This document shows, piece by piece, positions 1 through 51,764 of a DNA stretch of 64,000 nucleotides; position 1 is the first letter of the stretch; each line of letters opens with the position of its first letter. This DNA is from Candidatus Uhrbacteria bacterium (GTDB lineage: Bacteria; Patescibacteriota; Patescibacteriia; UBA9934; GWF2-40-263), in NCBI GenBank assembly GCA_016844925.1, contig JAERTI010000018.1, positions 1,221 through 65,220 of the forward strand, read 5' to 3'. Under the pieces are notes generated by a model that saw only the letters and a program-made list of their open reading frames with translations, made no database searches and was not told the DNA's origin. The position numbers were made by a program, and so were the translations under genes.

Positions 1-27
1 CGAGGGTTAATCGTCGTCGTCGGGTCA

Positions 28-2127
28 TCATACTTGGAGCGAGTCACGTAACTTATCTGCCTCCGCCTTTCCCTCCGCTTCCCCCGCAAGAAGTGCTGCT
101 GCGGCATCTTGTGCCGCCACCTCTTGTTCAGCCTCTCTCTGCGCTTCTTGTGCATCGGCTTCTACATCAAACACCTGTTCTTCTTCTACCACCTCCTCCT
201 GCTCAGCCCGTGCCTGCTGCTCTCGCTGCGCGCGCTCTGCCGCAAACTCTTTCTCTTCTTCCTCTTGCTCGAGAAGCTGTGCCGGGTTGGTTGTCACAAT
301 ACGGTCCTCTGTATAAGAAGCCACAATCTTAATGGCGGCATGCTTTGATCCAGCAAAGAAGATCCCCTCACCCACACCAGACTCCAGAAGAAGATACTTT
401 TCGCCGTCGGTAAGATGGAATGTTTTTTGAATGTTATCTGCAGCGCTCGGCGACTGTTTGAGCAATATCTGCATTGCCGAGTTGGTCACAATGGCCTGAC
501 CGTAGGCAGAGCGCAAAAAGTCGTTCACGTCCTGCGTAATGGTCGTCACACCCATGAAGTACTTTCGCGCACGTTTTACAAGTGCGAAGATAAACTTCGC
601 GGAGTCCTCTTGTTGCATCAGCCACCACGCCTCATCCACCACGAGAATACGCTTCTTGCGAATCGATCTCGTCACATTCCAAATGTAGTTGATGATGGAG
701 TAGATGGCGACCGGGCGTAGCTCATCTTCAAGATCACGCACAGAGAACACCACAAGCTGGTTACTCATCTCTACATTCGTCGGCTGGTTCAAGAGCCCGG
801 CGAACGTTCCATCGATATACTTATGCAGTCGCGCAACAAGCTCCGCAGAGCCCTCCATGCCCTCAAGTACATCCTCAAAGTCTGTCAGTGTTGGCGGATC
901 AATCTCATCAAGTTTCAACAAGTCTGGCGTAATATCCTTCTTCGCATAAGTCTCAATGAGTGCACGGTCAAGAAGCGAATCTTCCTCTGGAGTAAAACCA
1001 AGCTTCCCACCTTCACCAATAGGCTGACCGATCATGATGCGCAACAGTCCTTTGAGGGTAATAACAGCGGAGCGAATAATATCTTCCACCTTTGTCCCCT
1101 CTCCCACCGCACGCGGAAGATCAAACGGATTCACCTTCGCCTCCGAGGCGAGCGAAACATTAATGAACGTTCCTCCCACAGCATCGGAAAGATCTTTATA
1201 CTCATACTCCGGATCGATCACGATCACGTCCGTTCCCATCATGAGCGACCGAAGAATCTCGAGTTTGATCGCGTAAGATTTTCCTGCACCAGAGGTTGCA
1301 AACACCACCGAGTTGGCATTTTGTAGAGAGAATCGATCAAAGAGAATCAAGGAGTTGTTGTGACGGTTGATGCCGTACAAAATACCGTTATCCGAAGTCA
1401 GATCAGAAGAAATAAACGGGAACGAAGCCGCAATCGGCGACGTGTTCATGTTGTAGTTGATCATGAGTTCGTCATTTCCAAGCGGCACCGTGGAGTTGAA
1501 CCCCTGCTCTGCCTGGTAGAACCCAGCCTTGGTGTAAATCAACTTCGAGCCAAAGAGCGCCTCCACCTCATCGGTATACCGGCTCAGCTCCTGCTCATCT
1601 TTGGCGTAAATCGTAATGTAAAACGAGAACTGGAAGAAATGTTCAATCCCCTGTGTGAGCGCATCTCGCAACCCTTCGATGTCACGCAACGCTGTCTCAG
1701 CAATCGGGTCTCGTGGAGCCCCCTTCTCTGCATCAGATAGAATCTTCGCTTCAAAAATACCCACCTTCTTCTGAAGCTGCTTCAACACCACGTTCGCCTT
1801 AAGGGGGTAGAAAAACATGGCTACATCAAACGTCTTGTTCAAGTTGATGAGCGGCGTGGACCACCCAAGACCGATGTGACGAGGGTACGTAATGATAAAC
1901 AGCGTCCGCACATACATTCCTGACAGCTTGAGATACGTTGGCTTCACCTCAAAACTCGCCGGCGAAATCACGTCCTTCACGGTTACGACTCCACGGCGAT
2001 AAATCCGCTCTTCCTCCAAGATCTCCTTCTCCTTCTTTGCCTTCACTACCTCCTGTTTCTCTGGCTTTTTCTTCTCCGGAGCCTTGGTCGGCATTGCTTG
2101 TTTAATTGTCCCAATATCAATAGCCAT
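28..2127 (-). CDS. VirB4/TrbE/CagE-like type IV secretion ATPase (Gram-positive PrgJ/TcpF-like) with an acidic E/A/Q-rich C-terminal tail
   Basis: Walker A GAGKS and Walker B VVDEAW are present. The N-terminal domain pattern PTYLKLSGMYVRTLFIITYP matches conjugative VirB4. Length is 699 aa with a K/E-rich N-terminal linker. Confidence 0.8.
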   Translation of the reverse strand: MAIDIGTIKQAMPTKAPEKKKPEKQEVVKAKKEKEILEEERIYRRGVVTVKDVISPASFEVKPTYLKLSGMYVRTLFIITYPRHIGLGWSTPLINLNKTFDVAMFFYPLKANVVLKQLQKKVGIFEAKILSDAEKGAPRDPIAETALRDIEGLRDALTQGIEHFFQFSFYITIYAKDEQELSRYTDEVEALFGSKLIYTKAGFYQAEQGFNSTVPLGNDELMINYNMNTSPIAASFPFISSDLTSDNGILYGINRHNNSLILFDRFSLQNANSVVFATSGAGKSYAIKLEILRSLMMGTDVIVIDPEYEYKDLSDAVGGTFINVSLASEAKVNPFDLPRAVGEGTKVEDIIRSAVITLKGLLRIMIGQPIGEGGKLGFTPEEDSLLDRALIETYAKKDITPDLLKLDEIDPPTLTDFEDVLEGMEGSAELVARLHKYIDGTFAGLLNQPTNVEMSNQLVVFSVRDLEDELRPVAIYSIINYIWNVTRSIRKKRILVVDEAWWLMQQEDSAKFIFALVKRARKYFMGVTTITQDVNDFLRSAYGQAIVTNSAMQILLKQSPSAADNIQKTFHLTDGEKYLLLESGVGEGIFFAGSKHAAIKIVASYTEDRIVTTNPAQLLEQEEEEKEFAAERAQREQQARAEQEEVVEEEQVFDVEADAQEAQREAEQEVAAQDAAAALLAGEAEGKAEADKLRDSLQV

Positions 2128-2132
2128 ACCTC

Positions 2133-2831
2133 TTATCCTGTGACGTGTGTCTCTTCTTCAAACTGAATCTTATTAATATCTGAAAGCCCCTCAGCCGCAA
2201 ACACATCTGGGTTATACACATTGTAATAAAGCTCGATGAGACTCTCTGTATCAAGCCGAGCGCTCTCAAGGCCCATGGAGTTAAGCTGTCCCTGAGCAAT
2301 ATCCACACGCCGCCCAAGTTGCTCGATGCGATCTGCCAACTGCTTCTTGTTCAACTTTGCCGCCGCCGCAGGTGAGAGCGCCTCAGAAAGACGTGTCCAG
2401 AAGTTCTTCTTTTTATTTGTCAGCGGGTCATACGGAATCACCAGATAGAACATCTTTTGCATGATTTGCCCAAGCTCAACAAGCTCACCCACAAAGTTTC
2501 GGTAGTCGGCAATCTGTGAACGCAGCAGATCATTTTGAATCGTTCTCTCCTGTTCCCTTAGACGGCTCATATACCCGTCAATGTTCATGCGCCTGGACTG
2601 AATCACGACCTGCACCGGGTACTCAAGACTATTCAAAAATGTCATGTACGCCTGAATAATCGCCTCCTGCTCCTCACTCGATTTCAGAGCAAAGTTAATA
2701 CTCGCAACAAGAAGTACCGCGCGCACGGTTCCATCTTTGAGGAGCACCATGTCATCACGAATCTCCGCGATGTCGAGATACTTCACCGTAGAGGGTCCTG
2801 GTTTTGGTTTTGCGAGTTTCTTTGATTGCAT
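2133..2831 (-). CDS. hypothetical T4SS-associated protein; its N-terminal segment resembles the first module of Gram-positive VirB4 proteins
   Basis: 232 aa. The motif YLDIAEIRDDMVLLKDGTVRAVLLVASINFALKSSEEQ resembles the extreme N-terminus of Gram-positive VirB4 proteins such as TcpF. The ORF ends 5 nt before the VirB4 start, in a different frame. Confidence 0.4.
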   Translation of the reverse strand: MQSKKLAKPKPGPSTVKYLDIAEIRDDMVLLKDGTVRAVLLVASINFALKSSEEQEAIIQAYMTFLNSLEYPVQVVIQSRRMNIDGYMSRLREQERTIQNDLLRSQIADYRNFVGELVELGQIMQKMFYLVIPYDPLTNKKKNFWTRLSEALSPAAAAKLNKKQLADRIEQLGRRVDIAQGQLNSMGLESARLDTESLIELYYNVYNPDVFAAEGLSDINKIQFEEETHVTG

Positions 2832-2833
2832 AC

Positions 2834-3265
2834 CTATTCTTCAGGCTGATAGACACCACCTGTATTCACCACAAGGGTGAGCTCTTGCAAACGTGATGTC
2901 GCTGAAAATTCTTTTCGCTTGAATACATCCGATGGTGGTGGTGGTTCACGCTTCATCAATTCCTTCAGCTCACTATCGGTATAGACCTTATTCCACACAC
3001 GAAGCTTTGGTTTCTTTGCGGTCTGGAGAACATTCAGCGCAAAATAGTGAAAGTTGGCTCCGTTGATTTTCACAAACGCCACGATGCCCGCAATGACAAT
3101 GACCGGGACAGCCGTCAACAAAAATGTCACGAATGAAAGAAGTTTAAACAGAACAAAGTCGACCAGAATCGCAAACATCAGAATCAAAAACTGTCGTGCC
3201 GTGACAGGCCCAAAAATCTTGTCTTCTGCATCAATAAATTGTGGCACGACAAATTGATCTGGCAT
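2834..3265 (-). CDS. small two-TM membrane protein (VirB3/TcpE-like candidate)
   Basis: 143 aa with two hydrophobic helices (FLILMFAILVDFVLFKLL and LLTAVPVIVIAGIVAFV). It sits immediately upstream of the VirB4-like genes, as VirB3-like proteins usually do. Confidence 0.4.
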   Translation of the reverse strand: MPDQFVVPQFIDAEDKIFGPVTARQFLILMFAILVDFVLFKLLSFVTFLLTAVPVIVIAGIVAFVKINGANFHYFALNVLQTAKKPKLRVWNKVYTDSELKELMKREPPPPSDVFKRKEFSATSRLQELTLVVNTGGVYQPEE

Positions 3266-3277
3266 ACGTCTATTCTA

Positions 3278-5026
3278 TCAGAATCTCAGCTCCGCGTTCA
3301 CATGCATAATGGCCGCGAGCTCTTCATCAGAGAGTGTCTCCTCCCCTGCCATTCGATGCTGCTCAAGAACCTGTGTCACAGGCACACCCGCCAGCACGGC
3401 TTCACGCGTAAGATCAACGTACATCTTGTGCAAAGGAGACGTGCGCCAGGCATCGATGGCAGCAATCTTCTCTGCATGTCCCTGCTGGTCTTCAATGAGA
3501 TCCACTTTATCTTTCAATTTTGTGGCGGCCTGATTTGGATCTGATGAAAGCCTTCGGAAGTCTGTAAGGTCAAGTGTCTGCAACTCATCAACTGGACCAC
3601 TGAGACGCTTTTCAAACGTAATCTCCTTCATTGATGGCGTGCCATGAGGTTTAGGCACCGGAGCTTTCGCGCTCTCAATAGCCGCCTTCACTCGACCCGC
3701 GTCAATCTTCCCTTCACGCTCTCGCATTTCATGATGAGCGCTCACAGCCGCACTTGTTCTAGATACTGGAGGTGCTGTTGGAGCTACACCTGCCACAGGA
3801 GCCTTCCCCGTAAGATCTGCGTAGCGCTTTGCCAGGTGTTGCTGTTGCTTCTTAGCCTGCTCCGTTTTTTTCTCACGCCGAGCAATGCGCTCCTGCACAT
3901 GTTCCTGCTTACGCACAGCCATCTTCCCCTCATGACTACGCTCGTAGGCCTGCACATCTGCCTCAAGCGCTTCCATAATGTCAGCAAGACGACGCCCTTT
4001 CACACCCAATCCACCTTTATCCACCGCACGCTCAAGTGTCACCATAGCTCCACGCGCATCGCGCACACCGCGCACGCGCGACTCCACAATCTTCTTACAT
4101 CGACCCTCCAAAAGCGGATCATCAAACTTAAACGGATCCTTCTGACAAATCTTTGCCACAATCGCCTCAGGGGTCACAAGCTCAGAAGTCTGAACCACAT
4201 GCGACTGCTCTTTGGCGATCTGTTCAACTTCTTTTTTGTCTTCTTCAAGAGACGCCTCAGGGGAAACTTCCTTTACAACCTTAGTCTGTAAAGGAGCTGG
4301 TGGTTCTTTTGGTGTCTCCACAGGCTTCGGTGCCACCTTCTCCGCGGGCACCACAGGCTCAGCTTGAGCCAACTCTGCAACAACCAATCTTTGCGGAACA
4401 CGGAACGCCTGCATCTGCTCATCAGCATCAATGGTCGACAGAAGAATTTCTGCGCCATTCTCTGTGAGTCCCAGCCCATCAATTTTTACAGAATGCGTAA
4501 GCCGTTCTTTTGTCTGATTGCGCTGCGTGTGCCCCGAAAGATATTCAATCAGAATGGTTTCCAATCTACGGGCTATGCGTGCCTGTGTGATATCAGGAAC
4601 AGACGCCACATAATTCTTCACATAGCTCTCAAGCGTCTCCTCTTCCTTTTCCTCCTTCTCTTCAACCTTCTTCTCTACTTCACCAGCAGATAGCTCAACC
4701 TCCCAAGAAGCTGCCAACTCCTGCAAGTTAAACGGAAGGTGAGTTTGAATCTTTACAAGTATCTCCGTCACAATTCCCGATACAAGCCCCTCTATCGACG
4801 TCGGCTGAATTCCAATGGCTTCCAGTCCCTTCAAAAATCCATCTGGATCTACATCTTGCTCCACCAGGGAAAAGACTAACCCGCTAATCTTAGGAACGTA
4901 CGCATCGTCAATCCCCAAACTCTCAGCCAACTGCTCATAGGTCTCAAACGCATCTGCACTCCACAAATAATCACTCGCCTCCTTAGGTAGTGTGTTTTGG
5001 ATTACCTTTTGCGCAGTTGGTTCCAT
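3278..5026 (-). CDS. hypothetical soluble protein with acidic and coiled-coil segments, inside the T4SS-like cluster
   Basis: 582 aa ORF with no transmembrane segment. It has KEE-rich and K/E/Q-rich stretches and is tightly packed between the VirB6-like and VirB3-like genes. Confidence 0.4.
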   Translation of the reverse strand: MEPTAQKVIQNTLPKEASDYLWSADAFETYEQLAESLGIDDAYVPKISGLVFSLVEQDVDPDGFLKGLEAIGIQPTSIEGLVSGIVTEILVKIQTHLPFNLQELAASWEVELSAGEVEKKVEEKEEKEEETLESYVKNYVASVPDITQARIARRLETILIEYLSGHTQRNQTKERLTHSVKIDGLGLTENGAEILLSTIDADEQMQAFRVPQRLVVAELAQAEPVVPAEKVAPKPVETPKEPPAPLQTKVVKEVSPEASLEEDKKEVEQIAKEQSHVVQTSELVTPEAIVAKICQKDPFKFDDPLLEGRCKKIVESRVRGVRDARGAMVTLERAVDKGGLGVKGRRLADIMEALEADVQAYERSHEGKMAVRKQEHVQERIARREKKTEQAKKQQQHLAKRYADLTGKAPVAGVAPTAPPVSRTSAAVSAHHEMREREGKIDAGRVKAAIESAKAPVPKPHGTPSMKEITFEKRLSGPVDELQTLDLTDFRRLSSDPNQAATKLKDKVDLIEDQQGHAEKIAAIDAWRTSPLHKMYVDLTREAVLAGVPVTQVLEQHRMAGEETLSDEELAAIMHVNAELRF

Positions 5027-5031
5027 GTCTA

Positions 5032-7980
5032 TTACAAGCTCATTTTGTCTCTCGCTGTCGTGATCTCACTCAGATGGGTCTGTAGGGCCGCGATGCGCTG
5101 GTTCAACTCCTTTACCTCTTCCACTTCTTCTGGATTGAACTCCTTCAGCTCCGCTGCCTTGGCTTCAATTTGCGCTTTCAATTTCACGACAACCTCATCT
5201 TTCTCTACGGCCCTCTTCCTCGCATCCGGCATGACAGATTGACTCTTGGCAGCGTTCAGCTGAGCCAGAAGCGCATTTGCTTTCTCCTCTGCTTCATCCA
5301 CCCACTTCTTCGGCGTACCTGGTTGAGTTTTTACATGATCCGCCTGTTGCCGTGCTCTTACATACTCCGCGCGAATGCTTTCCGTCTTATCAAGCAGATC
5401 TTTATCAATCTTGACGCGCGCCTGCTCCAAACTCTCTGTGAGTTTTCGCAATGAATCCTCAATGCCTGATCGACGCCCTGACACCAACTCATCACGTGCC
5501 TTGGTGCGCTCAGAAAGTTCTTGGTTCTTAATACTCTGCTGTGTGCTCAAGTGCTCTGCTGCCTGCTGACGCTGCCCCTCTGAGGCAAGATTCATCTTCG
5601 CTCCATAAGCGTCACCGCTCTGACCTTCATCAAGTAAGTCCATTGGCGGCGGCACACGACCCTCTGCAACCTCCTGCAGTGCATTCAAACGCTTAAGCAT
5701 CTTGGCGTTTCCACGACCACCTGCGGTGACCCTACCCTTCTTTGTATCGAACTCGGCCCGTAGACCATTCATGTGCTGGAGCAAGTCGAGACGGTCTGCA
5801 TCACTTGTTCCCTCGGCGGTATAGCGACTTGCCAATGAGGAGATGAGCGACTCTGCGCGCTTCGTGTCACCATCAGCCATAGCAAGATCGATTCCCTGAC
5901 GGATAGACATCGTTGACCCCGTTGAACCAAGTTCACTAACATCTGCCAGGCGCAAATCATCTTTTGACATGGTCGCGAACCGATCTCCTGGCTTGAGTCC
6001 AATGGCAGCGGCTTTCTTGTTTCCTTCACGTCCCTGAACAAGCGCATCGTAGGCGGAAAGTGGCTTCTTATCATCGCCCAAATGTGTCGACTGAATTTTC
6101 TTCAAGTGCTCGCGCACCTCTGGATTCTGGAGCGCTGCATCGGAGAGACCCTTCACATCCCCATAAGAATCAATCGAATCAAGACCTGCTCCGGAATAAT
6201 GAACATTTGCCTTTTCAAAACTCTTCACCGCGCCCATCTTGGCCGAATCATGACCAAACATCTTCTTGTACTTGTCGCCATACTGCTCATGCATCTTCTT
6301 CACGCGGTCCTGTCCAAGATCCTTCTGCATCTGGCTGTCTCCAAGCATCTCCTCATAAAGGGCTGTTGCCTGTGCCTCACCCGAAACGGATGACGGAGGT
6401 GAATCCAAGAAACGCTTTGCCATGTCGGTCTTGCGCTGACGTGTCATGTCTTTGAGCTTTCCTTTCTGCTCTTCTACACCCTGACCAGCACTCTGAGAAA
6501 GAATATCGGCCTTCTTACGCTCGCGATCCGCACGCCATCGTCCAATGGCCCCGGAACCACGACCTTCTGCTCTCTTGCGGAGGCGCTCTGCCTGACTCAA
6601 GCGGTCCATCTTCGTCTTGGCAGCAACATCTCGAGCAAACTTACTTCCCGGTGCACCCGCAACCCCGGCCTTCGCCAAACCTGCAGCTCCCATAGCTCCA
6701 CGAGCCGTAAGGGCAGCTCCCGTACCAGCAAGTTTAAGGCCCGCTCCTGCTGCTGCAGGTGCTGCTGCCACCATGGTCCGAGGAGACTTAGCCACTCTTG
6801 TAATAAGCCCCTTCGCTGGATCGAGTGCATATTTTTGCATGATTCCACCAGCCTTCTTTGAACCTGCACACACTTGCGCGGCCGCATCAAAACTCGCGAA
6901 CATCAAAATACAACCAATCAGAAAGCTCATGAAGTTATCAAGCTGGAGCGCCTGAGAGTAGAAGTCCGCACTGTTGGAGCCAGACGAAACATCAAACCCA
7001 GACTTCTCCGCAATATTCCCTGCCGCCGCAACCGCTAATGTGAGCCACAAAAAGAATGTGAGTACAGGACCAATGGCTACCAGACACTTAAACTCCGCCC
7101 ACCAATTTTTGTAAAAATCAGAACTAATCACCCCCTCGGCCCCCTTCATAAACCACGCCATCGGAGCCAAAACAACCAACACCCAAAGTCCCACAATCCT
7201 GAAAAGCAAAATTGCTACCAGGAAGAAAAGGATTACCAGCACTCCAATGACCATAACCACCGAAAGAACACCGGCTGCAAGAAAGTCGAATGCCTCCAGG
7301 GCCCGACCTTCATCGATCACGGAAGAATTATTTGAAATGGCGTAGAGCTGATTCAGACCAAACAACTGAATAATGTTCCCTGCCGCAATCTCTCGCAGAG
7401 CGTTGGCAAAGGTCAGCATAATTACCTGACCAAAGTCGATCATGATGCCGCAGAGTGTTTTGGAGAAGTTAATCACCAACGCCATGATCATGAGTTGTGG
7501 CACCTGCTGCTGCCACTTGAAACGTGAGTGCCCAAAGATGGTTCCAAACGCGATGATAATAAGCACCACCACAAAGAACATGTTCACCGTGTCACGCACA
7601 ATCGCCCACCCTGCACTCACCACGTGATTGTTTGTAAATTCGTTGTACGTCATCACCGGCACCATCACATCAATAAGGAGCACAATGGCTGATGTTAAAA
7701 TTGCCGCTAACTGAAATGCCCCCTCAGCCATCAGGTTCATGATATTGTCGAACTCAAACTCTTGTGCGTACGCCGGTCGCGCCGCTACCAAAGAAAGAGC
7801 CGTCAAAACCAAAACACTCCGCCCACGGTGAAGCTGACGTGTCGGAACACCCCTACCACGCTGTCTCAGGGCGTCACGAAACTCGCGTAAACGAGAAAAA
7901 AATCGCCACATAAGTACCAAAATTATAGCATAGCGATAGTAAATGCGGGCGATGAAATGGGGATAATATAAATACCGCAT
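5032..7980 (-). CDS. VirB6/TrbL-like polytopic membrane protein with a long C-terminal Ala/Gly/Lys-rich and coiled-coil extension; the true start is probably the internal Met near 7911
   Basis: There are six or more hydrophobic helices in the first roughly 380 aa after a signal-like segment ending AYAQE. A long charged low-complexity tail follows, as in TcpH/Orf15-type VirB6 proteins. The first 23 codons overlap a terminator-like hairpin. Confidence 0.55.
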   Translation of the reverse strand: MRYLYYPHFIARIYYRYAIILVLMWRFFSRLREFRDALRQRGRGVPTRQLHRGRSVLVLTALSLVAARPAYAQEFEFDNIMNLMAEGAFQLAAILTSAIVLLIDVMVPVMTYNEFTNNHVVSAGWAIVRDTVNMFFVVVLIIIAFGTIFGHSRFKWQQQVPQLMIMALVINFSKTLCGIMIDFGQVIMLTFANALREIAAGNIIQLFGLNQLYAISNNSSVIDEGRALEAFDFLAAGVLSVVMVIGVLVILFFLVAILLFRIVGLWVLVVLAPMAWFMKGAEGVISSDFYKNWWAEFKCLVAIGPVLTFFLWLTLAVAAAGNIAEKSGFDVSSGSNSADFYSQALQLDNFMSFLIGCILMFASFDAAAQVCAGSKKAGGIMQKYALDPAKGLITRVAKSPRTMVAAAPAAAGAGLKLAGTGAALTARGAMGAAGLAKAGVAGAPGSKFARDVAAKTKMDRLSQAERLRKRAEGRGSGAIGRWRADRERKKADILSQSAGQGVEEQKGKLKDMTRQRKTDMAKRFLDSPPSSVSGEAQATALYEEMLGDSQMQKDLGQDRVKKMHEQYGDKYKKMFGHDSAKMGAVKSFEKANVHYSGAGLDSIDSYGDVKGLSDAALQNPEVREHLKKIQSTHLGDDKKPLSAYDALVQGREGNKKAAAIGLKPGDRFATMSKDDLRLADVSELGSTGSTMSIRQGIDLAMADGDTKRAESLISSLASRYTAEGTSDADRLDLLQHMNGLRAEFDTKKGRVTAGGRGNAKMLKRLNALQEVAEGRVPPPMDLLDEGQSGDAYGAKMNLASEGQRQQAAEHLSTQQSIKNQELSERTKARDELVSGRRSGIEDSLRKLTESLEQARVKIDKDLLDKTESIRAEYVRARQQADHVKTQPGTPKKWVDEAEEKANALLAQLNAAKSQSVMPDARKRAVEKDEVVVKLKAQIEAKAAELKEFNPEEVEEVKELNQRIAALQTHLSEITTARDKMSL

Positions 7981-8013
7981 GGGCGTTACGAGCGAGCTCG
8001 TGTTCCCATGCGG
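7975..8013 (-). terminator. GC-rich hairpin (9-bp stem CCGCATGGG/CCCATGCGG with a nested palindrome) followed on the minus strand by UAUUUAUAUUAU; candidate intrinsic terminator of the M23 peptidase gene
   Basis: The inverted repeat is read directly from the sequence, with an A/T-rich tract on the minus-strand 3' side. Confidence 0.45.
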
Positions 8014-8126
8014 TTCGTGAAAGGGCTAGCCTCCCATGAGTTCCTCCTAACGGGGCATAGCCCCTGTGCAAATGCGCGGCTTGCGCGGCTCTGCAGAAGA
8101 GACTCAGAGGGCGGCTCTCCTGCGTA

Positions 8127-10061
8127 TCACAGCTGGCTGTTGGACGTGTATCCGTTACCAGCACTCTCAAGGCCCGTCGTCGGGTCCCAACTCACCGAGA
8201 GGAGCCACTCTTCCCAGCTCGTCCCGTTGTCCTGCAGGTCGCACAAGTCCGACCCGCCGTAGCAGAAGCTTGCCCCCTGCCACCAGTACCAGTTGCTCAT
8301 GTCGCTCTCCGGCGCTCCTCCATCGGTTCCCACACTGGAGACCAGCGTGAGGTCGACGGTGCAGTCACCGTAGAAGTCAGAGAAGTCGATCTGGTAGTAG
8401 CCGTCGGACGAGTACACCAGGTCGGAGGTGGTGAGGGCGCCGCCGAAGCATCCTCCATTTCCGTAGACGAACGCCGGCAGACCACTGAGCATCGTGGAAA
8501 TCCAGAGGTCGTCCGCCATGGCGAGCGTCTCAGGCGCGCCATCTTCATCCACGTCGAGGATGCAGACGTCGTCACCACCACAATCCGTCGCGGTCGAGAT
8601 CGCCTCTTCCTCTTCTTCCTCATCGACAGACTCGTCTTCTTCCTCTTCCGGGATAGACTCTTCCTCTTCCACCTCATCGTCATCGTCGTCATCGACGCCG
8701 CCCGTGCTCCCAGAGCCCAGGTCCATGCCGCCACCACAGGTGGTCACGGCATCCATGTCGATGCAGCCGACGTCGGCGGTGCAGCTGCCCGTGTCGTGCA
8801 GCAAGCTCACCGCGCCGTCCTCCACTTCCATCACCGTGCGAGAGGCGAACCCCATCATGAGGTACACATCCCAACTGATGATGGGCAGCGCGTCGTCGCC
8901 GTCGATGGCGTAGACGTCCGAGGTGGCGTACTCACTCACGAGCGTGCCCGAGCGGAACCCAGCGTAGCCACCCCTCTCGGGCCAGTCCATGATGTACTCG
9001 CCCAATCCCCCGCTAGTCGGAGGCGGATCGCTGACGGTGTAAGACAACCCCCAGGACTGCAGCACCGAGAACCAGGCCGTCTGACGAACCTGCTGCCGGT
9101 ACCGATCCGAGTCACTCTCGGCGCCCACGACCAGCCAGAGATCGCCCTGCTCGTCGTAGACCGCATCGATCAGCGTCTGCTCCGTGAAGGACGAGGCGTC
9201 GCCGTAGCAACCCAGCTCCTCATCGGAGATGAGGACAACCTCATCGAAGTCGTAGCCCAGCGACCAGAACACGCTTTCGTCCTGGATCCATCGCAGGTCA
9301 CCCTCGTCCAGGACGTAGGTACGCGCGTTGTTCGGCGTCTTGACGAGCGTCCCATCGGGATGCCACATCGTCACCGGCAGCGCGGACTCGTAGAAGCTCC
9401 CCTGCACAGGATCACCTTCGGACGTAAGTCCACAGATGAAGTCCGAGGAACCGATGATCTGAGGCTCGCCGTACACCGTGGCGTCGGCAGCCCAGTAGTT
9501 CACCTCGACGGACGTACCATTGGTGGCATCGAGTGCCGCATTCCCCTCGTGGAGCCCCACATGGACATGATCGCCCGAGCAGTTGCCCGTGCACCCCTCG
9601 TAGCCGATGAGCTGGCCGACCACGACTTCCTGACCGTCCTGGATGAAGATGTCGTCCAGGTGTGCCACCACCGCGTAGCGTCCGTCACCGACGTCGATGT
9701 TGACGTGGTAACCGAAGCCACTGGTCGCAGAGTTCATGTGCACATAGGCCACACCACCGATGGGTGCGTAAATCTCGTCATCGACGTTGTTGTCCGTGTC
9801 CAGGTCGATGTCGTAGCGCGTCGAGTCCGAGCTGTGCGAGTGGGAACCATCGACTCCCTGCGTGCACAGACTCTCCGTCCCCACCGGGAACGGAAGCTGA
9901 AGCACGATGCCGTCGCCGCCCTGGTCGGACGAACTGCTCGCATCCTCTGCCAAGGACGGAAACAGCTCGTGGGGCGTGCAGCCCGTCATGGAGACCATTG
10001 CCATCACACTGATGAGCAGCACGCTGAAGTTGAAGTTGCTCTCGAAACGATTGAAGGACAT
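8127..10061 (-). CDS. M23/LytM-family metallopeptidase lipoprotein; GC-rich gene
   Basis: A signal peptide with lipobox-like MTGC is present. The M23 motifs are YHVNIDVGDGRYAVVAHL and GDHVHVGLHEGN. There is a poly-D/E acidic linker. The upstream sequence GGAGGGG is a candidate RBS (spacing to the ATG 10059-10061 not verified). Composition is about 59-65% GC against about 48% in the flanks. Confidence 0.75.
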   Translation of the reverse strand: MSFNRFESNFNFSVLLISVMAMVSMTGCTPHELFPSLAEDASSSSDQGGDGIVLQLPFPVGTESLCTQGVDGSHSHSSDSTRYDIDLDTDNNVDDEIYAPIGGVAYVHMNSATSGFGYHVNIDVGDGRYAVVAHLDDIFIQDGQEVVVGQLIGYEGCTGNCSGDHVHVGLHEGNAALDATNGTSVEVNYWAADATVYGEPQIIGSSDFICGLTSEGDPVQGSFYESALPVTMWHPDGTLVKTPNNARTYVLDEGDLRWIQDESVFWSLGYDFDEVVLISDEELGCYGDASSFTEQTLIDAVYDEQGDLWLVVGAESDSDRYRQQVRQTAWFSVLQSWGLSYTVSDPPPTSGGLGEYIMDWPERGGYAGFRSGTLVSEYATSDVYAIDGDDALPIISWDVYLMMGFASRTVMEVEDGAVSLLHDTGSCTADVGCIDMDAVTTCGGGMDLGSGSTGGVDDDDDDEVEEEESIPEEEEDESVDEEEEEEAISTATDCGGDDVCILDVDEDGAPETLAMADDLWISTMLSGLPAFVYGNGGCFGGALTTSDLVYSSDGYYQIDFSDFYGDCTVDLTLVSSVGTDGGAPESDMSNWYWWQGASFCYGGSDLCDLQDNGTSWEEWLLSVSWDPTTGLESAGNGYTSNSQL

Positions 10062-10498
10062 GGCGCCCCTCCCTTTCCATGTGGTTGGACGGGTTGGGTG
10101 CCATGACGGTCAACCTTCCCGGCCGGCACACCAGGCCTGGCATGCCGCGCCGTGACCGTTGACCGGTACGGTTCGATACATGAATGCGCCCCCCACTTCA
10201 CCCTCATGTATCGGATCGTGATCGAGCAAGCCGCATCGACGAGCTATAGTGTGTGGTCGTCGAGTCTGTGCCCGACAACTTCTTTCACACTGCATCTCGT
10301 CCGAGGAAGCCTGCGTTGATCTATTTCCAGAACACCAAACATTTCCCGGAGGGTCAAACGATTTTTCGCTAAAATACGGGCTATTTTTGTAAAGGTTGAT
10401 CCGACATGACAGATAAGTGAATCAAAAACACCCTGGAATCCCAAGGCGTTTTTCTGTTCGGATTATGGCGAAAAGCTTTGTGTGGGTAACACGGCTGT

Positions 10499-11761
10499 TT
10501 ACCCGCGTTTTTCAATGCGATCTTTTCCAACGTACCCACGGAGAACTTCTGGAACAACAATGGATCCGTCGGCCTGCTGATAATTCTCCATGATGGCGAT
10601 AAGCGTGCGACCGATGGCAAAGGCCGTTCCGTTGAGTGCGTGTGCGAATACATTCCCTCCCTCGCGACGAATGCGTGTATTGAGTCGACGTGTTTGATAG
10701 TCGGTTGTATTGGAAGTAGAGCTAGTCTCTCGATACGCTCCCTGTCCTGGCATCCAGGTCTCAATGTCGTACGTGCGTGCAGAAGGACTTCCTGTATCTC
10801 CTGAAGCTAGGCGCACCACTTGGTGTGGCAAGTTCAGGCCCTGCATCATTTTTTCCTCGATGGAAAGAATCAACTCGTGCTCTTCATCAGAGTGCTCTGG
10901 GGTGGTGAATGAGAACATTTCAACCTTATCGAACTGGTGCACTCGCAAGATACCTCGCGTGTCCTTTCCATAAGAACCCGCCTCACGCCGGTAACACGGA
11001 GAGAACCCAAGGTAGCGCAATGGAAGCTTGCTCTCATCAAGAATCTGTTTCATGTGCATGGGTCCGATTGACTGCTCGGATGTTCCGATGAGCACCATGT
11101 CGTCATTCTTCAAATGATAGATCTCTTCCTCTCCCCCGCGCTCAAGGTATCCCATGGCCCCCATGGCCTGCGTGCTCACAATGTGAGGTGGAATGACGGG
11201 AACAAATCCCTCGGCCATGGCCGTCTGCATCGCGTACTGCACCAGAGCAAACTCCAGGAGCACGGCATCCCCCTTAAGGTACACAAAACGCGCACCGGAA
11301 ACCTCGGCCGCACTGGACATGTCGATGATGTCGAGTGCTTCACCCAAGTCGAGATGATCTTTTGGTTCAAAATCAAACGTGGTTGGCTCACCAAACTTCC
11401 GCAGTACCTCATTAGCAGACTCATCGGGTCCGATAGGTACATCTTCTCGCAAAAAGTTTGGATAGCGGCGCAACTCTTTTCCAAGCGCTTGCTCAACTTC
11501 AGATAGCTTGGCCTCAGCTTCCTTCACCTTTGCCTTCAGCTCCTTTCCCTCAGCAATAAGAGCTTCTCTATTGTCTCCCGCCTTAGGGATCTGTGAGGCG
11601 ATTTCATTTCCACGCGTGCGGAGCGTTTGAACTGTTTCAATAGCCTTAAGACGCTCACCATGAAGCTCTGTGGCAACGGAAATATCGATATCTTTATTCC
11701 GATTTTTGATGTTTTGTGCCACGAGCTCAGGCTCGTCAAGAATTCGCTTGATATCAATCAT
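10499..11761 (-). CDS. serS: seryl-tRNA synthetase; the ORF-track start at 11860 is probably too far upstream and the likely start is MIDIKRILDE
   Basis: Full-length class II aaRS similarity: an N-terminal coiled-coil, then the motifs GFSPCYRREAGS and RVHQFDKVEMF, and TSNTTDYQTRRLNTR. Confidence 0.9.
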   Translation of the reverse strand: MIDIKRILDEPELVAQNIKNRNKDIDISVATELHGERLKAIETVQTLRTRGNEIASQIPKAGDNREALIAEGKELKAKVKEAEAKLSEVEQALGKELRRYPNFLREDVPIGPDESANEVLRKFGEPTTFDFEPKDHLDLGEALDIIDMSSAAEVSGARFVYLKGDAVLLEFALVQYAMQTAMAEGFVPVIPPHIVSTQAMGAMGYLERGGEEEIYHLKNDDMVLIGTSEQSIGPMHMKQILDESKLPLRYLGFSPCYRREAGSYGKDTRGILRVHQFDKVEMFSFTTPEHSDEEHELILSIEEKMMQGLNLPHQVVRLASGDTGSPSARTYDIETWMPGQGAYRETSSTSNTTDYQTRRLNTRIRREGGNVFAHALNGTAFAIGRTLIAIMENYQQADGSIVVPEVLRGYVGKDRIEKRG

Positions 11762-11841: not shown

Positions 11842-13746
11842 CTACTTGATCCCCGTACATCGCCCGAAGCGGATGTTACAGGTGATCTTCACCGGTGTGC
11901 CTTGGGCGACCGTGATGGTGCCCTCTTGGGGGGTATCTCGACCCTCCATGGTCACCAAGGCGCTGTAGACGCCCGGTGGCACATTGACCGACTGGCCGCC
12001 ACGCGTGAGCATGTACGTTCCACCCGGACCACTGAGCTTCACCGTGGCAACGGTTCCGCCCGGCAGCGTCAGTTTCACATCGACCCCAGTGGAGGCAAGC
12101 GACTCAACCACCTCGGGTTCGACTTCAGCCACCACCGGCTCCTCGACCTCACCACGAGACTCGGGAACCACTTCGGGCTCGCGAACCTCGGTTGGTGCAG
12201 GAAGCTCGAGCACTGGGTCAGGGGTGACCTCTAGGGTCGGTTCGACCTTCAACGTCACCTCGGGCGGATCGGACGTGGGCGGGACCAGCGGCTCAGTGAC
12301 CACCTCGACGATCTCCGTCGTCTCATCCGCAGGTGGCGTTTCCACCACCTCTGATGTGGACATCGTAGAGATGACCCAGAGGAACCCTCCCCCGAGCAGT
12401 GTCATGACCACGACCATCAGTGCGATCGCTCGCACGGGTCGCCGACGATCCTCACGCTCCTGCTCCTCTCGGAGCCGTCGCGCTTGCTCGGTCTCGAGCA
12501 CCCCCTCATGGAAGGTGCCCATGGGCAGGGCACCGTCGGCCCGCGTGGCATCACCCACGACCTCCGAATCCCAGGGATTCAAGGTCACACCGGCCGCCTG
12601 TTGCCTGATCGGCCCGGGAGGCAAGTGTGGCACCCCGCTGACATGCGAGGACAGACCATCCTGTGCGGAAACCGCATCGGGCATCGCGCGCGTTGGCGAC
12701 GGACCATCGTCCGGGTGCGGAGCAATGGTCATGCCACCGCGATGAGCGGCGACATCCGACGGTGACACCTCCGATCCCACCGCTACGCTGGGCAGCTCAT
12801 GAATCGACTGTGTCTCCTGAAGCTTGCGCGCAAGCAGAACCTTGGGAGCGGTTCCCAGCCCCGGCAAGTCTTCCGGGTCTTCGGGCAGAGACGCCATCTG
12901 ATGATCGAGCTCGTCGATCATCTCCTGCGCGCTCTGGTAGCGCGTGTCCGGATCCTTGGCCGTGGCCATGAGAATCACGCACTCGAGCTCGCCAGGAATC
13001 CCTTCCAGAAGGGCCTCGTCGGCCTCGCGCTGGAAGTAGAAGTCGTTGCCGCTGCGTGGGTACTCCCCTCGCAACAGGCACCAGAGCATGACCCCCACGG
13101 CGTGGATGTCCGCTCGATGATCCGCTGAGGATGCATCGATCTTCTGCTCAGGCGACATGAACGCAAGCGTTCCCATCGCCGTCCCCTCGCGCGTCAGGTG
13201 GGCCGTTCCCTCCTGCAGCTTGGCGATGCCGTAGTCGGCCACCTTGACCTGACCGCGCTTGGTGAAGAGCACGTTCTCGGGCTTGATGTCGCGGTGATAC
13301 ACCGGCGAGGAGTTCCCATCGGGATCCACGAAGGTGTGACCGAAGGCGAGCGCGCGCAGCACATCGATGGTCACGCGAGTCGCCTGGCGCGGACTGAGCG
13401 CCCCGAAGGCCTCCATGTGATCCTTGATGGTTCCGCCTGAGCAGTACTCCATCAAGATGTACGGCATGCCGTTCACCGTGTCGACGTCGTAGACGAGCAG
13501 AACGTTCGGGCTTCGCAACATCTCCATGACGCGCGCTTCCCGAATGAACCGCTCCCGCATGACCGTCGACCGCAGGTACGGACCATGCACGAGCTTCATC
13601 GCCCTGAGGGTCCGAAGCTCCTTGTGACGCACGAGCGCCACATAGCCAACTCCACCCGCCCCAAGAATCTTGACGACCTCGAAGCGCTGGAGCGGAGCGA
13701 TCATGCGCTGCAGTTCTTCTACAGCAGCCTGTTCGTCAATGTCCAT
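11842..13746 (-). CDS. Hanks-type Ser/Thr protein kinase (PknB-like) with one transmembrane helix and an extracellular PEVV/E-rich repeat domain; GC-rich
   Basis: G-loop GAGGVGYV, AMK lysine, catalytic loop HRDIKPENVLF, DYG and SPEQ motifs. A TM helix lies in VRAIALMVVVMTLLGGGFLWVI, followed by PE/VV repeats. The likely start is MDIDEQ. Confidence 0.85.
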   Translation of the reverse strand: MDIDEQAAVEELQRMIAPLQRFEVVKILGAGGVGYVALVRHKELRTLRAMKLVHGPYLRSTVMRERFIREARVMEMLRSPNVLLVYDVDTVNGMPYILMEYCSGGTIKDHMEAFGALSPRQATRVTIDVLRALAFGHTFVDPDGNSSPVYHRDIKPENVLFTKRGQVKVADYGIAKLQEGTAHLTREGTAMGTLAFMSPEQKIDASSADHRADIHAVGVMLWCLLRGEYPRSGNDFYFQREADEALLEGIPGELECVILMATAKDPDTRYQSAQEMIDELDHQMASLPEDPEDLPGLGTAPKVLLARKLQETQSIHELPSVAVGSEVSPSDVAAHRGGMTIAPHPDDGPSPTRAMPDAVSAQDGLSSHVSGVPHLPPGPIRQQAAGVTLNPWDSEVVGDATRADGALPMGTFHEGVLETEQARRLREEQEREDRRRPVRAIALMVVVMTLLGGGFLWVISTMSTSEVVETPPADETTEIVEVVTEPLVPPTSDPPEVTLKVEPTLEVTPDPVLELPAPTEVREPEVVPESRGEVEEPVVAEVEPEVVESLASTGVDVKLTLPGGTVATVKLSGPGGTYMLTRGGQSVNVPPGVYSALVTMEGRDTPQEGTITVAQGTPVKITCNIRFGRCTGIK

Positions 13747-14683
13747 GCCCGTCGTCCTCCTCTGATGGGGTGGTGAACTCGACGGTCGGCTTGCCCGTAC
13801 CGTCACGACCGAAACGCACATGCATCCCGATCCCGACACCGGCCAGGGCCAACCCTGCCGAGCCCGAGACGACAGCCGCCGTCCCGAATCCGTTGGTGTT
13901 CCGCTCGTAGCGAGCGAGATCCGCGTCCGGTGTGGACGGATCCTCGTACTGCGCCTTCTGGCTCATGGCGATGCCGTAGAAAACACCACTGGTGAGTACC
14001 GTGACTCCCGCCACGGCATACCACGGACGCGGGTCCTTCAAAACCACCGTCCGAGAGACACCCAGATCCTCAGCCGTGAGGCCATGGGGGTTCTTCTCGT
14101 CTGCGTGCCAATGCGGCAGCGCTTCACCGGGTTCGATGTAGCGCGTCTCCAGCCAGAGATCACCAGGCCCGTAGACCTGAACGATCACCGGCGTCTCACT
14201 GAACCGAGGCGCGTTGCGCACCCCCGAGACCATGACGTAGCCACCCACCGGTGGGTAGACCGGCTCGGCCTCGCCATCGGGCACATGCGCCGCCTCCTCG
14301 TACAGAGCGATGAGCGGGTGCCCAGCGTCGATGATGTCCTCGGGGAACTTGTACCCCGGGTCCAGACGGAGGCTGGCATGCAGCTCCGCGACCACGCGAG
14401 CATCGTTCCCGTTGATGAACGCCTCGAGCGCCATCAACCGATGGAAGCTCGCCGCCCCTTGGCGGGTCAGCTTCTCGCTCAGGCACGGAAGAATCTCCGT
14501 GCGCGCCAGGCTCGACTGCGTCAGCAGTGCATCGGCGTCCAGTTCCCCGAACGCCGCGACCCCGACCTCGACCGTTTCCACGAGCTGCTCGCTCGTCGTG
14601 GGCTCCTCACAGGCAGCAATGGCCGCCCGCGGAACCAGTAGGCTCAGCAGGGCAACCCCGCAGCAGATGATCAGCTTCATCAC
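13736..14683 (-). CDS. secreted or membrane-anchored hypothetical protein, co-transcribed upstream of the kinase; GC-rich
   Basis: N-terminal signal peptide MMKLIICCGVALLSLLVPRAAIAACEE. Hydrophobic segments lie near the C-terminus. It overlaps the kinase start by about 11 nt. Confidence 0.5.
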   Translation of the reverse strand: MMKLIICCGVALLSLLVPRAAIAACEEPTTSEQLVETVEVGVAAFGELDADALLTQSSLARTEILPCLSEKLTRQGAASFHRLMALEAFINGNDARVVAELHASLRLDPGYKFPEDIIDAGHPLIALYEEAAHVPDGEAEPVYPPVGGYVMVSGVRNAPRFSETPVIVQVYGPGDLWLETRYIEPGEALPHWHADEKNPHGLTAEDLGVSRTVVLKDPRPWYAVAGVTVLTSGVFYGIAMSQKAQYEDPSTPDADLARYERNTNGFGTAAVVSGSAGLALAGVGIGMHVRFGRDGTGKPTVEFTTPSEEDDGHGH

Positions 14684-14854
14684 GTCCTCGCATTCGTGGT
14701 AGGAAGGTTTTCTCGTAAAGAGCGGCGTCCGACCGGAGCCGAACGAGGCCGTTTTTTAGCACTTTGAGGCCACGAGGTCAATATAACACTCATGACCCAC
14801 AGAAATCGAAATTCTCATTTTTATCCACATTTTCACCAATCAAAAAACCATTCT

Positions 14855-14919
14855 TTTGACTAATTTTTGACACGTTTGACCATGCAGCTATTGACAAAAC
14901 GCCGAAAACTCCGTCTAAT
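14855..14919 (+). promoter_or_regulatory. four TTGAC direct repeats followed by a sigma70-like promoter (-35 TTGACA 14891-14896, 17-nt spacer, -10 TCTAAT 14914-14919) in the divergent intergenic region upstream of the lipoprotein gene
   Basis: Motifs read directly from the sequence. The region is AT-rich and sits between two GC-rich divergent transcription units. Confidence 0.35.
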
Positions 14920-15092
14920 GTCTATAGATAGCTCTTTGCAACCGGCCAAACTCATGGCCTTGGCTGCAGGCACAAGGGAGGAATTTTTTATTCCCTTGTG
15001 CCTGCGGCCGAAAGGCCAAAGCCCGCGGTGGGCTAGCAGGATCAACTTCCCGCACTCCACACACGTGGAGACGGGGCAGAAAGGAGTCAGAG

Positions 15093-15794
15093 ATGACCCG
15101 CTACCTGAGCCTGCTCGCGCTGGCCCTGCCCCTCGCCTTCGTGGCGGGGTGCGTGGACGGCACCGGCGAGAACCCCGACGACTGTGTCGACGGCGACTGC
15201 AGCGACACCAACGACTGCACCGACGGCGACTGCGTGGAGAACGGAGAGTTCCTCGCCCGCCTGCACCTGCTGGCGCCCAACGGCGACCACGCGGACTACA
15301 TGGCCGACGCCCCCGACGATCTCGTCTTCATCGGTGACTTCAAGATCGGCACCGAGACCCACGAGAACACCAGCGAGTGCTGGCACGAGGCCCACGCCCC
15401 GGAGAACGACCTCTTCGTCTCCTTCTCCGGCGACGGCTTCAGCTGCGCCCTGCAGTACGTGGACATCGTCTCGGGCGACAACGGCTACGACGTCGACGTC
15501 CTCTGGGACGGCGTCGCCCCGTGGATCGACGAAGACGGCGGCCCCACCTGCGCCCTCGACCCGGACGGTGAGTACACCGGCCACGATGTGCGAACCTCGC
15601 ACAACGATGACGGAGAGGTCGTCATCCACATCGACACGGGACAGACCGCTCCGATCGTCGGCAACGAGTTCTACTTCGAAGAGGACGGCGTCCTGCTCGA
15701 AGGCTGGGTCGCGTGGGATCTCTCGGAGATCTACTACCACGAGATCACTGCCGCCGGCAACGAGCGGGAGCAGACCATCTACCTGGAGGACTAA
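15093..15794 (+). CDS. acidic Cys/Asp-rich lipoprotein; GC-rich
   Basis: Signal peptide with lipobox LAFVAGC. RBS AGGAG lies 8 nt upstream. N-terminal DCxDGDC repeats. Confidence 0.6.
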   Translation: MTRYLSLLALALPLAFVAGCVDGTGENPDDCVDGDCSDTNDCTDGDCVENGEFLARLHLLAPNGDHADYMADAPDDLVFIGDFKIGTETHENTSECWHEAHAPENDLFVSFSGDGFSCALQYVDIVSGDNGYDVDVLWDGVAPWIDEDGGPTCALDPDGEYTGHDVRTSHNDDGEVVIHIDTGQTAPIVGNEFYFEEDGVLLEGWVAWDLSEIYYHEITAAGNEREQTIYLED

Positions 15795-15836
15795 CCCTCC
15801 TCCGCCCAGTCATAAGCTGGGCTATTTATTTTGAAT

Positions 15837-15870
15837 CAAAAAAAGGACAGGTTCACCCTGTCCTTTTTTT
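15837..15870. terminator. bidirectional intrinsic terminator shared by the plus-strand lipoprotein gene and the minus-strand giant gene
   Basis: A-run, then stem GGACAGG/CCTGTCC, then TTTTTTT. The stop codon of the giant gene lies in the T-run. Confidence 0.6.
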
Positions 15871-51646: not shown

Positions 51647-51653
51647 CCTCACG

Positions 51654-51681
51654 CAGACCACCAAACGGTGGTCTTTTTTTG
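51654..51681 (+). terminator. intrinsic terminator of the FG-GAP lipoprotein gene
   Basis: Stem AGACCACC/GGTGGTCT with loop AAAC, followed by TTTTTTT. Confidence 0.6.
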
Positions 51682-51764
51682 TGGGTAAATGCCCCCTTGA
51701 CGCTTCCTAAGATTCCTTGTAGTTTAGCCCCTTACCCATGCTTGTTGTCGGTAAGTAACACATA

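Follow-up and report, generated by a model that had tools for sequence, protein, structure and literature searches.

Core operon of a probable Patescibacteria-type type IV secretion system on the chromosome of a Candidatus Uhrbacteria bacterium

What kind of machine is encoded by five closely spaced minus-strand genes near the edge of a Candidatus Uhrbacteria contig, and does it belong to the chromosome or to a mobile element? The stretch of DNA analysed here (hereafter the window) comprises 64,000 nucleotides (nt), positions 1,221-65,220 on the forward strand of JAERTI010000018.1 (GCA_016844925.1). Patescibacteria, to which its source organism belongs, represent a very large part of the diversity of bacteria and seem to live at the expense of host cells, and to our knowledge their type IV secretion system (T4SS) is the only one known to be essential for the growth of its owner. 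A first-pass annotation made from the letters of the window had likened the cluster both to T4SS-like systems of episymbiotic bacteria with reduced genomes and to Tn916/pCW3-type conjugation modules. We find that it is most probably the core operon of a chromosomally inherited Patescibacteria-type T4SS (class ABY1) that descends from monoderm MPF_FATA conjugation machinery and is no longer mobile. The locus is that of the Patescibacteria-clade T4SS of Quinonero-Coronel 2025 and Wang 2023, a kind that was described in 2023-2025 and is not new, and it adds nothing categorically new to that description. It is nonetheless a clean example of the ABY1 type, with an operon that leads from a VirB6-like gene through VirB4 and a VirB8-like gene to comF, with a conservation stronger than that of a tRNA synthetase, and with a widespread cytoplasmic component for which there is no Pfam or NCBIfam model.

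All five open reading frames (ORFs) of the cluster were re-found in the order and at exactly the coordinates given before (Table 1). The gaps between them measure 5, 12, 2 and 5 nt, and because none exceeds 12 nt we read the five genes as a single operon; since each of them has same-order homologues in dozens of genomes, they are not chance ORFs. The 699-aa product (aa, amino acids) is a VirB4 ATPase as had been proposed, scoring above the curated cutoff of the CD1110-family model NF045971 (332.4 bits versus 325, profile positions 175-730), matching Pfam P-loop_TraG (E 7e-28) and retaining intact Walker A (ATSGAGKS) and Walker B (ILVVDE, residue 494) motifs ahead of an acidic C-terminal tail. 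The first ~175 positions of the VirB4 profile are missing from this protein and are supplied by the adjacent 232-aa protein, which had been listed as an ORF and left without an identity. It matches the N-terminal part alone of VirB4 models (TIGR00929 positions 9-176, E 5.9e-6; Mbov_0397 VirB4 model positions 104-236, E 6.3e-9) as well as TrsD/TraD NF041427 (E 1.2e-5), and its precomputed annotation is PF26593 TraC-like. Judged by these matches the protein is TrsD, a detached VirB4 N-terminal domain, and VirB4 is in effect split. Neither of the two proteins has a hydrophobic span by hydropathy. The 143-aa protein in turn exceeds the gathering cutoff of Pfam PF12666 PrgI (E 2.9e-9, 37.8 bits versus 27), and its single 54-residue hydrophobic block within residues 17-73 corresponds by hydropathy to two transmembrane (TM) helices, in line with the earlier call of a two-TM VirB3-like protein.

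Two ORFs that jointly cover one VirB4 profile and lie just 5 nt apart could also be the pieces of a broken virB4 pseudogene in a decaying, non-functional cluster. We give this explanation practically no chance. TrsD is a separate gene beside virB4, with PrgI adjacent, in 50 of 50 related loci (synteny counts here and below are lower bounds from single-sequence tblastn, taken over loci with room for the gene in question), and in all of them the split is the same and both genes are intact, at identities of 40-85% for TrsD and 58-89% for VirB4. The same split occurs in a Pontibacillus megaplasmid cluster described below and, according to PMC12102498, in pGO1-type systems (TrsD), and an intact set of Walker motifs likewise argues against decay. 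Because it is conserved in 50 of 50 loci, we take the TrsD/VirB4 split to be ancestral.

Table 1. Coordinates of the T4SS core genes and adjoining features in the window.
Feature	Position	Strand	Remark
Putative extended VirB6-like polytopic membrane protein, 982 aa (nominal)	5032..7980	-	
582-aa predicted cytoplasmic all-alpha protein, unannotated family	3278..5026	-	
PrgI/VirB3-like two-TM protein, 143 aa	2834..3265	-	
TrsD-like protein, free-standing homologue of the VirB4 N-terminal domain, 232 aa	2133..2831	-	
VirB4 ATPase, CD1110 family (MPF_FATA type), 699 aa	28..2127	-	
M23 metallopeptidase with lipoprotein-type signal	8127..10061	-	Pfam Peptidase_M23 E 1.6e-13
Extended -10 promoter-like motif TGCTATAAT	7926..7934	-	sequence match only

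The distribution of the cluster is that of an inherited chromosomal locus rather than of a traveller. Our VirB4 search returned 57 loci from Patescibacteria metagenome-assembled genomes at 58-89% identity, the closest of them labelled Candidatus Uhrbacteria, whereas identity outside Patescibacteria is 24-37% (Bacillota, Actinomycetota) and the search contained just two Firmicutes loci, at 24-26%. The same gene order recurs in ~50 Patescibacteria genomes: besides TrsD and PrgI, in 41 of 43 loci the 582-aa gene separates the VirB6-like gene from virB3, the VirB6-like gene is present in at least 22 of 31, a VirB8-like gene in at least 40 of 54 and ComF in at least 27 of 47, and in 11 of 27, mainly among Uhrbacteria, an M23 peptidase gene stands immediately upstream of the VirB6-like gene. 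VirB4 is also more conserved than the adjacent seryl-tRNA synthetase (SerRS), with 76-78% versus 45-46% identity in four relatives (L010, L012, L015 and L027). The rest of the window is made up of housekeeping genes (KsgA, Sua5/TsaC, release factor, GroEL, YidC, NusA, ArgRS, ValRS and SerRS) together with kinases, two giant proteins and two tRNAs. As stated in the first-pass annotation, the window ORFs that we scanned (those of at least 150 aa and not inside a longer ORF), all housekeeping genes or unknowns, include no relaxase, integrase or coupling protein. Nor did a relaxase or coupling protein turn up in a 1.3-kb extension of the locus on the public contig L001, and the ~10 kb flanking the locus to either side in two relatives were likewise free of a relaxase, an integrase and a coupling protein.

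These data bear directly on the possibility that the cluster is a remnant or the cargo of an integrated conjugative element (ICE) or plasmid of Gram-positive origin, be it Tn916-, pCW3- or otherwise ICE-like. Its VirB4 does belong to the CD1110 family that is typical of Firmicutes ICEs, and a Pontibacillus megaplasmid combines the same VirB3-TrsD-VirB4-M23 layout with a VirB4 of 37% identity. However, the 64 kb hold no integrase, relaxase or coupling protein (no search for att repeats was made), the genes flanking the cluster are housekeeping genes, and its GC content of 0.49-0.51 equals the typical value of the window. The same order and flanks (SerRS, M23, ComF, RecG, RadA) recur across Uhrbacteria, and VirB4 drops from 58-89% identity within Patescibacteria to at most 37% outside. 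The specific comparison with Tn916/pCW3-type modules also fails, as the pCW3-type TcpF model NF052333 reaches 28.8 bits against a cutoff of 1100 and aligns to residues 145-313 alone. Conservation, synteny, composition, housekeeping context and the lack of mobility genes together lead us to rule out the remnant explanation as highly improbable. Family hidden Markov models (HMMs) of the 982-, 582- and 143-aa proteins, and of a 198-aa protein encoded past coordinate 1, gave no significant match in the Firmicutes ICE-like loci L059 and L060, where the TrsD HMM found a weak match on the VirB4 N-terminus (E 0.011).

The MPF_FATA conjugative systems of monoderms, such as pGO1 (TrsC-TrsD-TrsE), CTn2 (CD1110 VirB4) and pCF10 (PrgH-PrgI-PrgJ-PrgK-PrgL), resemble the cluster in gene content, beginning with its CD1110-family VirB4. 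Shared with them are a PrgI-type VirB3 and TrsD, along with the absence of outer-membrane core components, and the cluster further has candidates for a polytopic analogue of VirB6, for an NTF2-like analogue of VirB8 and for a cell-wall hydrolase. Unlike these systems, the cluster is not on a mobile element, and the window yielded neither a relaxase or coupling protein nor an adhesin or oriT context; its hydrolase is an M23 lipoprotein and not an SLT/CHAP VirB1, it has an extra 582-aa protein, and VirB4 identity to Firmicutes systems is 24-37%.

The best plasmid-borne match is a cluster on the megaplasmid of Pontibacillus sp. ALD_SL1 (NZ_CP062975.1, ~351.8-361.4 kb; L061), whose VirB4, at 37% identity, is the closest non-Patescibacteria relative in the collections that we searched. 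Its local order is the same, with a polytopic 779-aa protein, a VirB3-like protein, a TrsD-like protein, VirB4 and a large M23 peptidase adjacent, and our family profiles detect its TrsD-like protein (E 1.5e-44) and its 116-aa VirB3-like protein (E 1e-7). It differs in having two Mbov_0395-type pilin-like genes upstream, no 582-aa homologue and no VirB8-like or ComF gene downstream, and its polytopic protein has no detectable similarity to the 982-aa protein. The Pontibacillus cluster (350-361 kb) itself contains no relaxase, encodes an M23 protein of 1,050 aa and has a complete set of flagellar genes as its neighbour; the plasmid is typed as non-mobilizable.

The first gene of the operon encodes the putative membrane channel. 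Hydropathy gives at least 6 hydrophobic spans within residues 83-372, followed by a ~600-aa hydrophilic C-terminal part in which an Ala/Gly-rich linker leads into a ~500-aa region of mixed charge (K+R 17%, D+E 17%), so that both the polytopic character and the huge charged tail noted before are confirmed. Its homologues begin at the position of Met24 (ATG 7911), and an extended -10-like motif, TGCTATAAT, lies 14 nt 5' of this codon and within the nominal 982-aa ORF. Because the homologues start there and the motif stands just upstream, Met24 is probably the true start, which would give a product of 959 aa beginning with a Sec-type signal (..ARPAYA/QE). The motif was not called by a consensus two-hexamer scan, and consensus scanning for promoters and terminators over positions 1-10600 gave sites no more numerous than in shuffled sequence.

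Indirect evidence points to VirB6. The TM core is conserved and carries invariant motifs (GW..RD..N.F, NFS, R..P, WW, GP..F), the position of the gene upstream of virB3 is conserved among related loci, and 3 of 26 homologues match TrbL/VirB6 (PF04610; best E 1.5e-5), and the relatives P0052 and P0053 score 22-23 bits, below the gathering cutoff of 25.9. A profile of the N-terminal domain found nothing among PDB sequences. An AlphaFold2 model of residues 24-418 (pLDDT 76.6, pTM 0.68) was compared by Foldseek with 350,542 PDB chains, and its two top-ranked matches are both R388 TrwI/VirB6 (8rtd_L, prob 0.93, E 0.03; and 7o3v_G), followed by DotA in third place; these three matches have E-values of 0.03-0.18, none below 1e-3. 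From the TrbL matches in relatives and the top-ranked VirB6 folds, it is likely, though not proven, that the protein is an extended VirB6-like protein, as the earlier VirB6/TrbL-like call had it. Extended VirB6 proteins such as RvhB6 of the Rickettsiales (PMC12857230) likewise have at least 5 TM helices and then a large C-proximal hydrophilic domain. The tail of our protein is unrelated to theirs as far as tested and has no Pfam match, and its TM core is weakly similar to TrbL/VirB6.

The second gene of the operon belongs to the sole under-described element of the locus. Its 582-aa product has no hydrophobic span by hydropathy, in agreement with its earlier description as soluble, and none of the 27 family members that we scanned matches Pfam; NCBIfam has no model for the family either. 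Clustered at 50%, the family, which is specific to T4SS operons of Patescibacteria, comprises 3,534 representatives at E<=1e-3 and 1,422 at E<=1e-30. An AlphaFold2 model (pLDDT 75), the structure prediction that had been proposed as a check, consists entirely of helices in four confident domains, to which Foldseek could assign no fold in the PDB (best E 0.99). Residues 145-201 are duplicated within the protein as residues 300-356 (hhalign prob 93.9, E 1.5e-7), and its C-terminal domain, at approximately residues 464-582, is strongly conserved. Because of this conserved domain and the duplicated helical modules, we regard the protein as a candidate lineage-specific cytoplasmic subunit of the machine. 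The duplicated module of ~57 aa includes a conserved G-L-G hairpin (GGLG, with G341 invariant). By eye this is loosely reminiscent of DNA-binding helix-hairpin-helix motifs, an idea that we treat as speculation, as neither Pfam in the 27 members nor Foldseek returned one.

The cluster had been expected to continue past coordinate 1, perhaps with VirD4 or a pilin. It does continue, as seen on L001, a public contig with the identical locus that reaches 1.3 kb further, and what follows there is a VirB8-like gene and comF instead of VirD4 or a pilin. The stop codon of virB4 overlaps the start of the VirB8-like gene, and the latter shares 31 nt with comF. The 198-aa product of the VirB8-like gene has one TM helix (residues 3-35) and does not itself match Pfam VirB8 (PF04335), but its 70%-identical homologue P0073 does (25.1 versus 23.2 bits), and among the 41 members of its family 5 match VirB8, 7 NTF2_YvbJ and 6 SnoaL_4; with P0073 and these family matches as its basis, we call the protein VirB8-like. 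The 229-aa ComF-family protein matches TIGR00201 (E 1.5e-17) and GntX (E 7.5e-16), and its score of 64 bits is below the curated cutoff of 233.

In close relatives, ComF is followed in order by an HD protein, RecG, RadA, two T4SS_pilin fusions and DsbA. In one of them, L005, the two fusions join T4SS_pilin (VirB2-like) to Peptidase_M15_4 or Peptidase_M23 (17660-18814 and 18682-19812, both on the minus strand); with DsbA as their neighbour, they lie 5.5-7.7 kb from VirB4, on the far side of ComF, RecG and RadA. RecG itself is found in L005 as two adjacent plus-strand ORFs, 14265-15572 and 15578-16309, the wedge and DEAD domains falling to one and Helicase_C and RecG_dom3_C to the other. It is a single gene of 678-683 aa in two other relatives, and a frameshift or assembly error could explain the split. 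Among small ORFs outside the large genes of our window, we found no convincing pilin-like candidate.

On its other side, the operon is adjoined by the gene for an M23 metallopeptidase with a lipoprotein-type signal (..SMTGC). Given its recurrence directly upstream of the VirB6-like gene, this gene probably belongs to the system, where its product would act as a cell-wall hydrolase and functional analogue of VirB1.

Seen as a whole, the locus matches the published picture of the Patescibacteria T4SS, including its comF/recG/radA context, and the earlier comparison with systems of episymbiotic reduced-genome bacteria holds. PMC12102498 describes a monophyletic Patescibacteria VirB4 clade allied or sister to MPF_FATA, with TrsD as the most abundant accessory component, a PrgI-type VirB3, a VirB6 that is partly detectable and a VirB8 detected almost solely in class ABY1; around the locus it finds no relaxases and seldom a coupling protein, and comF, recG and radA occur in the neighbourhood specifically in ABY1. 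Our locus is likewise chromosomal and free of a relaxase, has an MPF_FATA-related VirB4 (a relation based here on profile score and identity), and combines TrsD and PrgI/VirB3 beside virB4 with VirB6-like and VirB8-like partners. Of the ABY1-type neighbourhood, comF is next to the locus on L001, and recG and radA are seen in relatives. Compared to the Saccharibacteria T4SS, no VirB2-like pilin array adjoins virB4 here. The parts of PMC12102498 and PMC10633639 consulted here do not name the 582-aa family that separates virB6 from virB3. In Southlakia epibionticum, genes of the T4SS (SEML1_0006-0019) are essential for epibiotic growth (PMC10633639; PMC12857230).

Some points weigh against this explanation. 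Its VirB8-like and ComF genes lie outside the window and are known from L001. The genome is covered over 64 kb plus 1.3 kb, the point at which both recorded contigs stop, and a coupling protein, a relaxase or a pilin array may lie elsewhere; VirD4-like genes are far from virB4 in many Patescibacteria, as PMC12102498 reports. The profile search suggested for VirB6 and VirB3 succeeded for VirB3 and failed for the VirB6-like protein of the window, which has no direct match in Pfam or NCBIfam and is tied to TrbL through its homologues, and the VirB6 fold matches of its model have E-values of 0.03-0.15 and TM-scores of 0.24-0.37.

How such a machine would work can be sketched by analogy with R388 and Gram-positive T4SS models. 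The two-TM PrgI/VirB3 would anchor the VirB4 ATPase and the detached TrsD at the membrane, where the extended VirB6-like protein would form the channel and the bitopic VirB8-like protein would scaffold assembly. The M23 lipoprotein would open or remodel the cell wall, and the 582-aa helical protein would be an accessory, specific to the lineage, on the cytoplasmic side. By hydrolysing ATP, VirB4 would power assembly and, in relatives, probably that of a VirB2-like pilus too, and a macromolecule would be moved across the single membrane of the episymbiont at the site of contact with the host cell.

Which macromolecule this would be, and in which direction it would move, can be answered only tentatively. 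For this ABY1-type operon, nucleic-acid traffic, likeliest uptake as in ComB and Ced, comes first among the single readings without reaching an even chance, and protein or effector export stands close behind. We favour nucleic-acid traffic because no relaxase or coupling protein was found in the window or near the locus in two relatives, the operon runs into comF, and relatives have RecG and RadA further along. Two machines for DNA uptake, ComB of Helicobacter pylori and Ced of archaea, are T4SS-derived or powered by VirB4/HerA and likewise work without a relaxase or coupling protein. Both are functionally tied to uptake factors of the ComF/ComEC type, and here comF is in the operon. The lack of coupling proteins in ComB and Ced, the T4SS-related DNA importers known to us, can be counted in favour of import.

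In its specific form, this idea is that the machine takes up DNA or RNA, from the host or from the environment, and hands single strands to ComF, RadA and RecG, which we consider possible but by no means established. It would account for the overlap of comF with the VirB8-like gene, for RecG and RadA downstream in relatives, and for the missing relaxase and coupling protein in the window and within ~10 kb in two relatives. The ABY1-wide association with comF, recG and radA (PMC12102498) fits as well, as does a 2026 preprint in which another cultivated Patescibacterium is reported to acquire host RNA and to bear possible T4SS pili where it meets its host. On the other hand, there is no specific sequence relation to Ced (the CedB model reaches 44 bits against a cutoff of 700 and CedD E 1e-3, both through the generic ATPase core), and ComB, with VirB7/9/10, belongs to the MPF_T systems of diderms; any likeness to our locus would be one of function. 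The window encodes neither ComEC nor ComEA, and the ComF score is below its curated cutoff (64 versus 233 bits). Two further points count against import and, with it, against our overall interpretation: the adjacency of comF, recG and radA may be a neighbourhood effect of a compact genome, and deletion of comEC in S. epibionticum abolishes competence and not viability, whereas the T4SS is essential (PMC12857230), which weakens a simple DNA-uptake reading.

Export of proteins is about as plausible as import and equally short of an even chance. The cargo would be effectors, hydrolases or pilin-hydrolase fusions, and the machine might build a VirB2-like pilus to the host, as proposed for Saccharibacteria. 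Wang 2023 (PMC10633639) suggests protein export since no coupling protein or relaxase is recognisable, and two features of the loci would suit it, namely the T4SS_pilin-M15_4/M23 fusions near DsbA at 5.5-7.7 kb from VirB4 in relatives and the M23 lipoprotein gene flanking the operon. Against it stand the lack of a pilin gene in this window and of any identified candidate effector or secretion signal, and the operonic comF is left unexplained.

A bolder version of nucleic-acid import would give the 582-aa protein a central role. It is an unlikely and frankly speculative idea that this protein is a new core T4SS subunit whose repeats, which look like helix-hairpin-helix modules, act as a nucleic-acid or substrate receptor in place of the missing coupling protein, and that the machine, together with ComF and RecG/RadA, imports host DNA or RNA. 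If it were true, host nucleic acid would feed a cell that is unable to make nucleotides. The 582-aa family is in any case a sensible target for interaction modelling and biochemistry on what the machine transports.

Beyond the T4SS locus, GC content is 60-64% in three blocks (8001-10000, 12001-16000 and 50001-52000) and 47-53% in the rest of the window. Within them lie the M23 lipoprotein gene, a Ser/Thr kinase accompanied by two unknown ORFs, and a protein with FG-GAP/MopE repeats. Since the synteny of M23 and the kinase extends to other Uhrbacteria, nothing obvious speaks for recent transfer. Two giant minus-strand ORFs, at 15869-26005 (3,378 aa, no Pfam match at E 1e-3) and 56123-63919 (2,598 aa, with Sarcoglycan_1-like and DUF2345-like repeats), may encode surface or host-interaction proteins. 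Nearly all genes of the window are on the minus strand, and GC skew is negative from position 1 to ~58 kb and positive thereafter, switching inside the 2,598-aa gene; the switch at ~58000 could mark a replication origin or terminus, and YidC and KsgA are among the genes of the window.

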